Positions 14,306-16,010 of a stretch of 64,000 bases of DNA are shown piece by piece. A program made the translations under genes and the position numbers. How positions within the stretch are numbered: position 1 is the stretch's first letter; the number at the start of each line of letters is the position of its first letter. The notes under the pieces are model-generated. The model had not been told where the DNA came from. It did not search any database and saw only the letters and a program-made list of their open reading frames with translations. This DNA comes from Escherichia phage KEP3: sequence record PP047753, one strand, 5' to 3'.

Positions 14306-14331
14306 AGTCTCAGCTACATTAAAATGAGACT
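14306..14331 (+). other. hairpin H1 (stem AGTCTC/GAGACT, loop AGCTACATTAAAAT)
   Basis: Inverted repeat; followed by TTTTT. Confidence 0.6.
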
Positions 14332-14448
14332 TACCTTTTTAAAAGGTCTTTAAAGAGGGTCTTTTAATGAGGTGGGGTCTGGTTTGGTATGGTAATGTGA
14401 GGTATGGGTCAGGTGGGGTGAGGTGTAGTTAGGTCTGGTATGGGTGGA

Positions 14449-14476
14449 TGGTAGTAGCCACGTTAAAAATCTACCA
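14449..14476 (+). other. hairpin H2 (stem TGGTAG/CTACCA, loop TAGCCACGTTAAAAAT)
   Basis: Inverted repeat with loop related to H1. Confidence 0.55.
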
Positions 14477-14551
14477 AGTTTCTAAAGAGTCTTCTGTTGA
14501 GGGTTCTTTACAAACAACTTAACAATAAACTAAAGTGTGGAGCTAAATGCT

Positions 14552-15139
14552 ATGAAACTGTTAAATATCAAAATCACTGGTACTCGTCCTTTCCTGAGCC
14601 ACGCTGATACGCTGTCAGACCCATTAAATCCTCTGACAAAATATCACAAGTCTCTGTCCAGTAAACGTAAAAAGACTGACGAAGACTATGCGCTCTTAGC
14701 AGAAAGCCAACTGGTAACTTCTTGTTACTACGATGAGCAACTGGGTTTTGTTATGAACGGTGAGATGATTGAGGCTTGCATTAAGTCTGGTGCGAAACTC
14801 AACAAACTTGGTAAGGTAATTGACCGAGCCATTATGCTGACAGATGTAGTCTTCCCAATGACTATCAAGAACTGTCCAGCAAACCCACAAGAACTTGCTA
14901 AGAATCCAGACTTTATCTATGCTAAGTCTGTTAAGATTGGTACAGCACGAGTTATGAGCTACCGTCCAATCTTCCGTGACTGGTCTGTAGAGTTCGGTTT
15001 GATGTTCGATGAAGAGCAAATCACCAGAGAGGAACTTCTGATGGTTCTGGAAAATGCTGGTAACCTTTGTGGTGTAGGTGATTGGCGTCCACGCTTTGGT
15101 CGTTTTTCTGTAGAAGTTATTTCAGAAGGTAACGTTTAA
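14552..15139 (+). CDS. hypothetical protein
   Basis: ORF track frame; start moved from GTG 14537 to ATG 14552 (GGAG RBS). Confidence 0.5.
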
Positions 15140-15141
15140 TT

Positions 15142-15582
15142 ATGAATACAAAAGCATTAGCAGCAAAGTTTAGTTACGGTGACACTGTATCACACTCTGA
15201 GATGGATACCTTCTTAGGTATTGTGAAGCCAACTTATCAAGGTGACATTGTTAAGTACGAAGATGAAATGAAGGCTTATGCACTTACACGCCTAAACCGA
15301 CTTGAGAAGTTTATTGAGAAGCTTCTTAAAGAAGAGAAGATTTATCTGGTTGCTTCAATGGGTGTTGGTTATCGTGTGGTTGAACCTAAGCATCAAGCAA
15401 CTATTGCAAAACGTAAAATGTCTGGTAAGATTGGTCGCGCTTTAAAGCAAGCCACTCAAGCGATTGAGAATGTGAACACTATGGCACTTAGCCATCAAGA
15501 ACGCTCACGACTGATTGAACAGCAAAACCATTTAGCTGCTATGAAAGCTAACATTAACAAGCAACGTAGAAAACCTTTCTAA
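15142..15582 (+). CDS. hypothetical protein
   Basis: ORF track. Confidence 0.5.
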   Translation: MNTKALAAKFSYGDTVSHSEMDTFLGIVKPTYQGDIVKYEDEMKAYALTRLNRLEKFIEKLLKEEKIYLVASMGVGYRVVEPKHQATIAKRKMSGKIGRALKQATQAIENVNTMALSHQERSRLIEQQNHLAAMKANINKQRRKPF

Positions 15583-15593
15583 GTTGACTAGGT

Positions 15594-15616
15594 AGCCTCT
15601 TCGGAGGCTCCTTTTT
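15594..15616 (+). terminator. rho-independent terminator (AGCCTC-TTCG-GAGGCT + T5)
   Basis: GC stem, tetraloop, T-run. Confidence 0.6.
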
Positions 15617-15717
15617 AAAAGGTCTTTAAGAGGGTCTTTTAATGAGGTTTGGTATGGTCAGGTATGGTGTGGTGTTGTAAGGTTTGGTGCGGTCAGGTTA
15701 GGCTTGGTATGGGTAGT

Positions 15718-15745
15718 TAATCGGAGCTACATAAAAATCCGATTA
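15718..15745 (+). other. hairpin H3 (stem TAATCGGA/TCCGATTA, loop GCTACATAAAAA)
   Basis: Inverted repeat; loop conserved, stem differs from H1. Confidence 0.6.
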
Positions 15746-15855
15746 CATCACTTAAGAGTCTTCTAAGAGGGTTTTTAAGTGGTGTTTGGTAGGATAGAGT
15801 AAGGTAAGTTAAGGTAGGGTGAGGTCTGGTATGGTAAGGTAATGTATGGGTAGTT

Positions 15856-15881
15856 AGTCTCAGCTACATTAAAATGAGACT
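15856..15881 (+). other. hairpin H4 (identical to H1)
   Basis: Exact repeat of 14306-14331. Confidence 0.6.
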
Positions 15882-15982
15882 TACCTTTTTAAAAGGTCTT
15901 TTAAGAGGGTCTTTTAACAAGGTATTGTATGGTGTAGTTTGGTTAGGTATGGTTAGGTGTGGTAAGGTAAGGTATGGAAGGA

Positions 15983-16010
15983 TGGCAGTAGCCTTATAAA
16001 AAATCTGCCA
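15983..16010 (+). other. hairpin H5 (stem TGGCAG/CTGCCA, loop TAGCCTTATAAAAAAT)
   Basis: Inverted repeat with related loop. Confidence 0.55.

Follow-up and report, generated by a model that had tools for sequence, protein, structure and literature searches.

The window analysed here, 64,000 nucleotides of Escherichia phage KEP3 (sequence record PP047753), comes from a Felixounavirus, a Felix O1-like myophage. A 2-kb query over the region of interest retrieved 230 phage records, mostly of Felixounavirus, and the top regional matches were 91-95% identical. The interval from the DNA ligase gene (12979-14115) to the next conserved gene (16102-16485) contains two small ORFs and five modules (M1-M5) of about 130-155 bp each; M1 and M2 are located upstream of the two ORFs and M3-M5 downstream of them. 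Each module begins with a conserved leader (about 35 nt), continues with a C-poor tract that has GGT every 5 nt, and ends in a hairpin (H1-H5 in M1-M5, respectively). The locus sits among replication genes, with that for DNA ligase immediately upstream, and no GGT-dense tract occurs elsewhere in the 64-kb window. All features of the window described below are on the plus strand.

The first small ORF (vipr, 14552..15139), lying between the modules, encodes a minimal RAMP protein of 195 aa that matches PDB chain 36pp_D, 'SUSP1 Vipr protein', over residues 1-195 (E = 2e-128). The two proteins are identical at 191 of 195 positions (98%), and the named RNA-contact residues (H17, E71, M72, R138, C173, D177, W178 and R179) are all conserved in the KEP3 protein. 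The second ORF (15142..15582) encodes an accessory protein of 146 aa, identical at 145 of 146 positions to the product of the SUSP1 ORF adjoining vipr; on the basis of the published description of the SUSP1 locus it is taken to be vap1. VIPR stands for Viral Interference Programmable Repeat, and the type II system is found in Escherichia phage SUSP1 (bioRxiv 10.64898/2026.04.26.720920, 10.64898/2026.04.26.720927). Its vrRNAs consist of 9-16 YNNGG units and an invariable 3' tail, and Vipr, a minimal RAMP protein, polymerises on this RNA with one protomer per pentamer, so that GGY is buried and NN exposed (bioRxiv 10.64898/2026.04.26.720920, 10.64898/2026.04.26.720927). The exposed NN pair with double-stranded DNA, skipping every third target base, which leads to transcriptional silencing; target engagement runs from the 3' tail end toward the 5' end (bioRxiv 10.64898/2026.04.26.720920, 10.64898/2026.04.26.720927). 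Several earlier candidate ideas for the modules were made unnecessary because the adjacent ORF matched the solved Vipr protein, and all were dropped after the 36pp_D match: an R-loop replication origin (a G-rich non-template strand 3' of a strong promoter), RNA wrapped on a TRAP-like ring protein (because of the period of 5 nt), antitermination of the boxB-boxA-boxC kind (because of a boxA-like leader), Chi-like or RecA-preferred GT-rich DNA, two-tetrad G-quadruplexes, and Shine-Dalgarno-like ribosome sponges or CsrA sponges.

A putative sigma-70-like promoter at 14123..14150 (TTGACA, a 16-nt spacer and TATACT; 11 of 12 consensus matches) precedes the first pair of modules and vipr, and Felix O1, Bas63, Moogle and SUSP1 share this promoter-like sequence. 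A consensus scan for terminators gave a single call, a terminator-like hairpin (AGCCTCTTCGGAGGCT) followed by a T-run at 15594..15615, 3' of the accessory gene, and none at H1-H5. M3-M5 are directly downstream of this hairpin. Another promoter-like site at 16029..16057, whose -35 falls within an inverted repeat (16010-16028 and 16038-16056), may serve the downstream genes and is outside the VIPR system proper.

The leaders are of two types, both containing two AARRGTCTTTTAA-like repeats, which are framed either by a CATCACTTAA/TTAAGTGATG palindrome or by ACCTTTTTAAAAGGT. Type A leaders are found in M1 (14181..14219), where the palindrome CATCACTTAA...TTAAGTGATG surrounds the repeats, and in M4 (15746..15784); type B leaders are found in M2 (14333..14367), which starts with the palindrome ACCTTTTTAAAAGGT, M3 (15609..15642) and M5 (15883..15917). 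The M1 leader is conserved between phages and could be a processing site or a promoter. Matches to the leader motif TAARAGGGTYTTTTAA in IMG/VR were mostly due to chance.

The guide tracts follow the leaders directly. M1 has 16 YNNGG units (14220..14299), M2 has 15 (14368..14443) with an extra G after unit 8 (14408) that makes one unit 6 nt long, M3 has 14 (15643..15712), M4 has 13, several of them degenerate (15785..15849), and M5 has 12 (15918..15977). Across 79 unique tracts GGY is kept in strict register and NN is free, and between phages that are otherwise 92-95% identical NN is hypervariable. Tract lengths vary between phages by multiples of 5, and the number of modules per phage ranges from 1 to 5. 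We also scanned IMG/VR with a DNA pattern alone, namely seven GGT repeats at 5-nt spacing. Among the matches listed, heterogeneous (GGTNN)n arrays, often in tandem sets, are present in many unrelated viral contigs, and in more than 30 of those contigs, again among the matches listed, tblastn with the 195-aa ORF found a Vipr homologue beside the array.

Four discrete types of hairpin can be distinguished. H1 (14306-14331) is of type a, with the stem AGTCTC/GAGACT around the loop AGCTACATTAAAAT; the complete M1 tail (14300..14331) comprises the strand GTAGTT (14300-14305), the two stem halves AGTCTC (14306-14311) and GAGACT (14326-14331) and the intervening loop (14312-14325), and is followed by TACC and TTTTT. 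H4 (15856-15881), in the M4 tail (15850..15881), is identical to H1. H2 (14449-14476) is of type c, and the M2 tail (14444..14476) reads GTGGA, stem TGGTAG, loop TAGCCACGTTAAAAAT, stem CTACCA. H3 (15718-15745), of type b, belongs to the M3 tail (15713..15745), which is composed of GTAGT, stem TAATCGG, loop AGCTACATAAAAAT and stem CCGATTA. H5 (15983-16010), of type d, closes the M5 tail (15978..16010), composed of AAGGA, stem TGGCAG, loop TAGCCTTATAAAAAAT and stem CTGCCA. The earlier note, made from the letters of this stretch, had described five hairpins with these stems, and all five are present where it placed them. The loops are 12-16 nt long. TTTTT follows H1 and H4, as had been noted, and no U-run follows H2, H3 or H5. 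We found the four types again in about 93 modules of about 30 related phages (Felix O1, Bas63, Moogle, SUSP1, two Danish isolates and 22 IMG/VR contigs), and type d is always in the last module.

Considered alone, the folding energies of the hairpins give a weak signal (MFE -7.9 to -12.5 kcal/mol, z -0.7 to -3.1), those of H2, H3 and H5 being only modestly better than shuffles; the comparative signal is strong. Among 19 distinct tails, 90.8% of cells are paired in the combined hairpin and pseudoknot scheme, against 28-45% when the partners are slid. Both sides change in six of the seven stem pairs and in three of the five pairs of the pseudoknot helix (9/12 overall), and none of 500 shuffles reaches the observed covariation score. 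The suggestion that the stems differ, remain complementary and are under selection for structure is thus borne out by a covariation check across about 30 phages. Tail variation is mostly between the four paralogous types, so independent compensatory events are few. In type b orthologues the closing pair is G-C, G-U or A-U; this series is a compensatory path through a wobble pair that is possible on the plus strand alone, and argues for a structure formed in RNA.

The loop had been described as conserved under changing stems. It is not constant throughout, however: the bases immediately upstream of the stem can pair with the 5' half of the loop, and the two segments covary. In the scheme proposed here, which was derived from covariation among only four tail types, GUAGU(U) pairs with (A)GCUAC in types a and b, type c has GUGG opposite CCAC, and type d has AAGG opposite CCUU. 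Because the 5' half of the loop covaries with the segment upstream of the stem, the tail is, as predicted from these sequences, an H-type pseudoknot, and this pairing accounts for most of the loop conservation. Conservation extends to the A-rich half of the loop, which may dock against the stem in the manner of other H-type pseudoknots. In the MFE fold of type a, GGGUA pairs instead with UACCU, lengthening the stem in competition with the pseudoknot strand.

The satellite of SUSP1 and the phage itself share a baseplate-hub protein with 72% protein identity (bioRxiv 10.64898/2026.04.26.720920, 10.64898/2026.04.26.720927). Prompted by this, we used the baseplate-hub region of the window in a blastn search and found a chromosomal satellite element in 474 of 5426 complete E. 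coli genomes. Five satellite variants, including L270-L273, were then searched for targets of the five guides, with shuffled-order guides as controls. With a one-base skip all five guides exceed the shuffled-order maxima, and skips of 0, 2 or 3 bases give background. The M1 guide matches 27 of 32 positions in the first satellite gene (L271 4458-4504), and the M3 guide matches the same gene on the opposite, minus strand (L271 4713-4753) at 24 of 28 positions, including 24 of 24 in its 12 central units. M2, searched as one contiguous 15-unit guide, matches 25 of 30 positions in the second early-region variant (L272 4478-4521, L273 4577-4620), and M4 matches 21 of 26 in the HTH-domain gene of that variant (L272 3888-3925). 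The M5 match (20 of 24; L270 8115-8149) lies over the -10 region of the first satellite operon and the point where its transcript starts. All five matches are in the early region of one satellite family, three of them in one variant of that region and two in another.

A skip on the wobble position has been reported for the SUSP1 system (bioRxiv 10.64898/2026.04.26.720920, 10.64898/2026.04.26.720927), and in the four coding targets found here the skipped base is codon position 3 in every case. Of 65 unique vrRNAs from relatives that carry vipr, 43 match one of the five satellite variants at 80% or more, above the null, and certain guides reach just 78-84% on these five variants. The published targeting rule is thereby checked independently, on guides that were not part of the preprints' experiments. 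No self-target of the five guides was found within the window, and the exact nine-unit target patterns of M1 and M3 had no match in IMG/VR. A blastn search with M3-M5 against the 5426 E. coli genomes gave no match; therefore satellite-borne vrRNAs, if present, lack these tails at blastn sensitivity.

We conclude with high confidence that this Felix O1-like phage carries a type II VIPR locus at 14123-16010, in which H1-H5 form the invariable 3' tails of the five vrRNAs. As the vrRNA tail of the SUSP1 VIPR clade, these hairpins are already known, though only from preprints of April-June 2026. The locus resembles that of SUSP1 in its 98% identical protein, in having vrRNAs on both sides of vipr and the accessory gene, in its YNNGG guide tracts, in tail types a, c and d, which are identical in sequence, in the class of its target (a satellite sharing the baseplate-hub gene) and in the one-base skip on the wobble position. 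It differs in belonging to a Felixounavirus rather than a Suspvirus genome, in having five vrRNAs (2 + 3) instead of four (1 + 3), and in all of its NN guide sequences; in addition, a type b tail is present and one of the guides contains a unit of 6 nt.

SUSP1 vrRNAs were identified by small-RNA sequencing and pull-down as Vipr-bound small RNAs of about 100 nt, and the RNA in the cryo-EM structure is SUSP1 vrRNA1 (bioRxiv 10.64898/2026.04.26.720920, 10.64898/2026.04.26.720927), whose tail is of the same type (c) as that of M2. The tail fold of the SUSP1 clade is described as including a 3' pseudoknot that caps the Vipr filament (bioRxiv 10.64898/2026.04.26.720920, 10.64898/2026.04.26.720927). 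By analogy, the vrRNAs of KEP3 would be expressed, have their ends and bind Vipr as in SUSP1, from which these properties are carried over. [quoted passage not shown] A protein-bound RNA stem-loop was one of the options listed in the earlier note, and it fits, the SUSP1 orthologues having been sequenced as Vipr-bound RNAs. That note was right on the structure and did not include the tracts of YNNGG pentamers, the pseudoknot or the Vipr gene that the modules flank.

The VIPR preprints draw a parallel to the CRISPR handle (bioRxiv 10.64898/2026.04.26.720920, 10.64898/2026.04.26.720927). As in the repeat handle or hairpin of class 1 crRNAs, which is bound by Cas6 or Cas5, a constant structure caps a variable guide, and subunits of the RAMP fold are arranged at a fixed periodicity. 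In VIPR, however, the cap is a 3' pseudoknot, the guide is read in pentamers with 2 of every 5 bases pairing, and neither an acquisition machinery nor a CRISPR array is present. To our knowledge, no Cas6-type processing is known for VIPR.

Intrinsic (Rho-independent) terminators have a G+C-rich stem, a loop of 3-8 nt and a U-run directly after it. H1 and H4 resemble them as stem-loops followed by TACC and the U-run, their MFE fold lengthens the stem to 12 pairs right before that run, and type a tails in relatives mostly have a U-run after them. The hairpins, or at least H1 and H4, could on these grounds be mainly terminators or attenuators that set the 3' ends of the vrRNAs or meter read-through. 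We consider this unlikely. The stems are short and only moderately G+C-rich, the loops of 12-16 nt are outside the terminator pattern and paired in the pseudoknot, and the consensus scan passes over all five. Three of the five hairpins (H2, H3 and H5) have no U-run, yet are equally conserved and covarying, and one type a tail of SUSP1 has a different 3' sequence without the run. The covarying pseudoknot helix, moreover, has no role in termination. The weak terminator or attenuator activity that had been suggested for H1 and H4 would therefore be at most a side role to that of a vrRNA tail. The four tail types and the conserved leaders might direct steps in vrRNA biogenesis that depend on module position, for instance termination behind type a tails or processing at the leader. 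Biogenesis steps tied to tail type or leader are not described in the VIPR preprints.

Another explanation sees the modules chiefly as recombination substrates, comparable to the promoter-stem-loop cassettes of T4-type phages, through which the vipr-vap cassette is moved or lost; their structure would be incidental. The modules do flank the cassette, their number is variable, and about half of the related phages have modules without it. The compensatory stem changes, the covariation of the pseudoknot, the GGY register with free NN and the one-base-skip matches to the satellite would all be left unexplained, and we regard this explanation as very improbable. If recombination between modules removes the cassette, this is more probably a by-product than their purpose.

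Phage N4 promoters, hairpins of extruded DNA with a 5-7-bp stem and a loop of 3 nt, depend on a giant virion RNA polymerase; the hairpins described here have in common with them a short stem and sequence-specific unpaired bases. Action in DNA, as N4-type promoters or single-strand replication initiation signals (both named in the earlier note), would suit the 6-7 bp stems, the A/T-rich loop with its TAAAAT-like hexamer and the position next to DNA ligase among replication genes, but has hardly any likelihood left, since the loops have 14-16 nt and not 3 nt, the plus-strand-specific G-U pair of type b would turn into a C-A mismatch if the other strand folded, the loop is engaged in a pseudoknot with bases 5' of the stem, no giant virion RNA polymerase is seen in the window (its largest ORF is 909 aa), and the orthologous SUSP1 RNAs were sequenced and seen bound to Vipr. 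GC skew tracks gene orientation and has no origin signal at the locus.

The reading of H1-H5 as vrRNA tails makes VIPR recognisable from sequence alone, through pentamer tracts and a pseudoknotted tail beside a Vipr gene. VIPR is an RNA-guided DNA recognition system with a gapped code and has been proposed to predate CRISPR (bioRxiv 10.64898/2026.04.26.720920, 10.64898/2026.04.26.720927). For therapeutic and typing phages of the Felix O1-like group, the system would be a built-in weapon against a satellite of about 9% of complete E. coli genomes. The modules (about 140 bp) in roughly 230 Felix O1-like phage records can now be named in annotation. In GenBank records they are blank or labelled 'repeat_region', the Felix O1 genome paper does not mention them, and no curated Rfam family was matched by them (chance-level E = 0.24-7.4, far under the gathering scores).

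At least one module is present in the 230 phage records, and Vipr at 90% identity or more is found in 117 Ounavirinae records. vrRNAs are thus kept without vipr in about half of the related phages, which is a new side observation. These orphan phages carry 1-3 intact vrRNA modules at the same position, and their records contain no vipr gene at all; Felix O1 has one and Bas63 two, and neither has the vipr-vap cassette at the locus. It is possible, though we think it rather doubtful, that orphan vrRNAs are maintained since they work in trans, either by loading onto Vipr that another element or a co-infecting relative provides, or by acting as decoys that sequester the Vipr of a competitor. Five of the 14 orphan guides match the satellite at 85-96%.

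Each of the five vrRNA modules of the type II VIPR locus (M1-M5) opens with a conserved leader of about 35 nt ahead of its guide tract, at 14181-14219, 14333-14367, 15609-15642, 15746-15784 and 15883-15917 in the window. The leader contains two direct repeats resembling AARRGTCTTTTAA and occurs in two forms, one built on the frame CATCACTTAA/TTAAGTGATG and the other on the palindrome ACCTTTTTAAAAGGT; a pseudo-leader, a leader-like copy that is followed by no guide tract, lies upstream of the Vipr protein gene vipr (14482-14512). The leader may serve in processing, as a promoter or as a site for a protein.

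The satellite targeted by the guides is a chromosomal element of about 11 kb, represented here by five E. coli variants (L270 5000-16400, L271 900-12400, and L272-L274) and found in 474 of the 5426 complete E. coli genomes, where its integration sites differ (yciI/tonB, yecD and wrbA). It carries genes for serine recombinases, both small and large, together with a tape-measure gene. It also has a baseplate gene, the first ~560 nt of which share 90-95% DNA identity with the phage's own baseplate-hub gene. The early region of the satellite exists in at least two alternative versions, between which the guides of the window are divided: M1, M3 and M5 match one, and M2 and M4 match the other. The M2 guide includes a single 6-nt unit at 14403-14413, consisting of TATGG with an extra G; all 15 of its units nevertheless align with the target together, forming a single uninterrupted guide (25/30), and a single extra base within a guide tract thus seems to be tolerated. 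In phage Bas63, the last guide (L126 2790-2840) has been expanded through four or five tandem copies of the 10-nt double unit GGTTAGGTAT, an array that shows growth of guide tracts by slippage in whole units; this expanded guide gives no match above background in the five satellite variants.

Modules of this kind are present in 230 phage records, whereas Vipr is encoded in only 117 Ounavirinae records. Orphan vrRNA modules, accompanied by neither a vipr nor a vap gene, are found in Felix O1 (L123 2590-2714), Bas63 (L126 2600-2885) and further phages (L129, L130, L135-L138, L145 and L149). Under the one-base-skip rule, by which every third target base is left unpaired, five of the 14 unique orphan guides retain a satellite match at 85-96%. 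The present Felix O1-like locus, at about 80-92% identity, also lies within GenBank GU169904.1 (Staphylococcus phage SA1) and MG065664.1 (Campylobacter phage A132), suggesting that these two records are chimeric or mis-assigned assemblies.

Unrelated viral contigs carry five to seven vrRNA-like tracts in tandem, with the hairpin absent and only a short constant spacer between tracts, for example GGTAAGGCTAATGG in L153. These arrays (L153 6100-6500, L269 about 4600-5050 on the plus strand, and L160, L253 and L184) adjoin distant Vipr homologues of 24-43% identity. The tail formed by hairpin and pseudoknot is therefore peculiar to the SUSP1-type clade.

Several signals flank or punctuate the locus. 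The inverted repeat GGTGAGTA ... TACTCACC (14141-14178) covers the -10 hexamer of the putative upstream promoter, as well as the bases that would be transcribed first from it, and is kept in Felix O1, Bas63, Moogle and SUSP1. Between the accessory gene and M3 stands a clean terminator-like hairpin (15594-15615), whose T-run overlaps the M3 leader. M3-M5 would be transcribed either by read-through or from promoters of their own. Downstream, a 19-nt inverted repeat, AAATAAGCTATAAAATCTG / CAGGTGTTATAGCTTATTT (16010-16056), brackets the -35 hexamer of a promoter-like site belonging to the following genes; this repeat is a possible operator. About 650 bp downstream, at 16662-16991, lies a gene for an HTH protein of the Cro/CI type.
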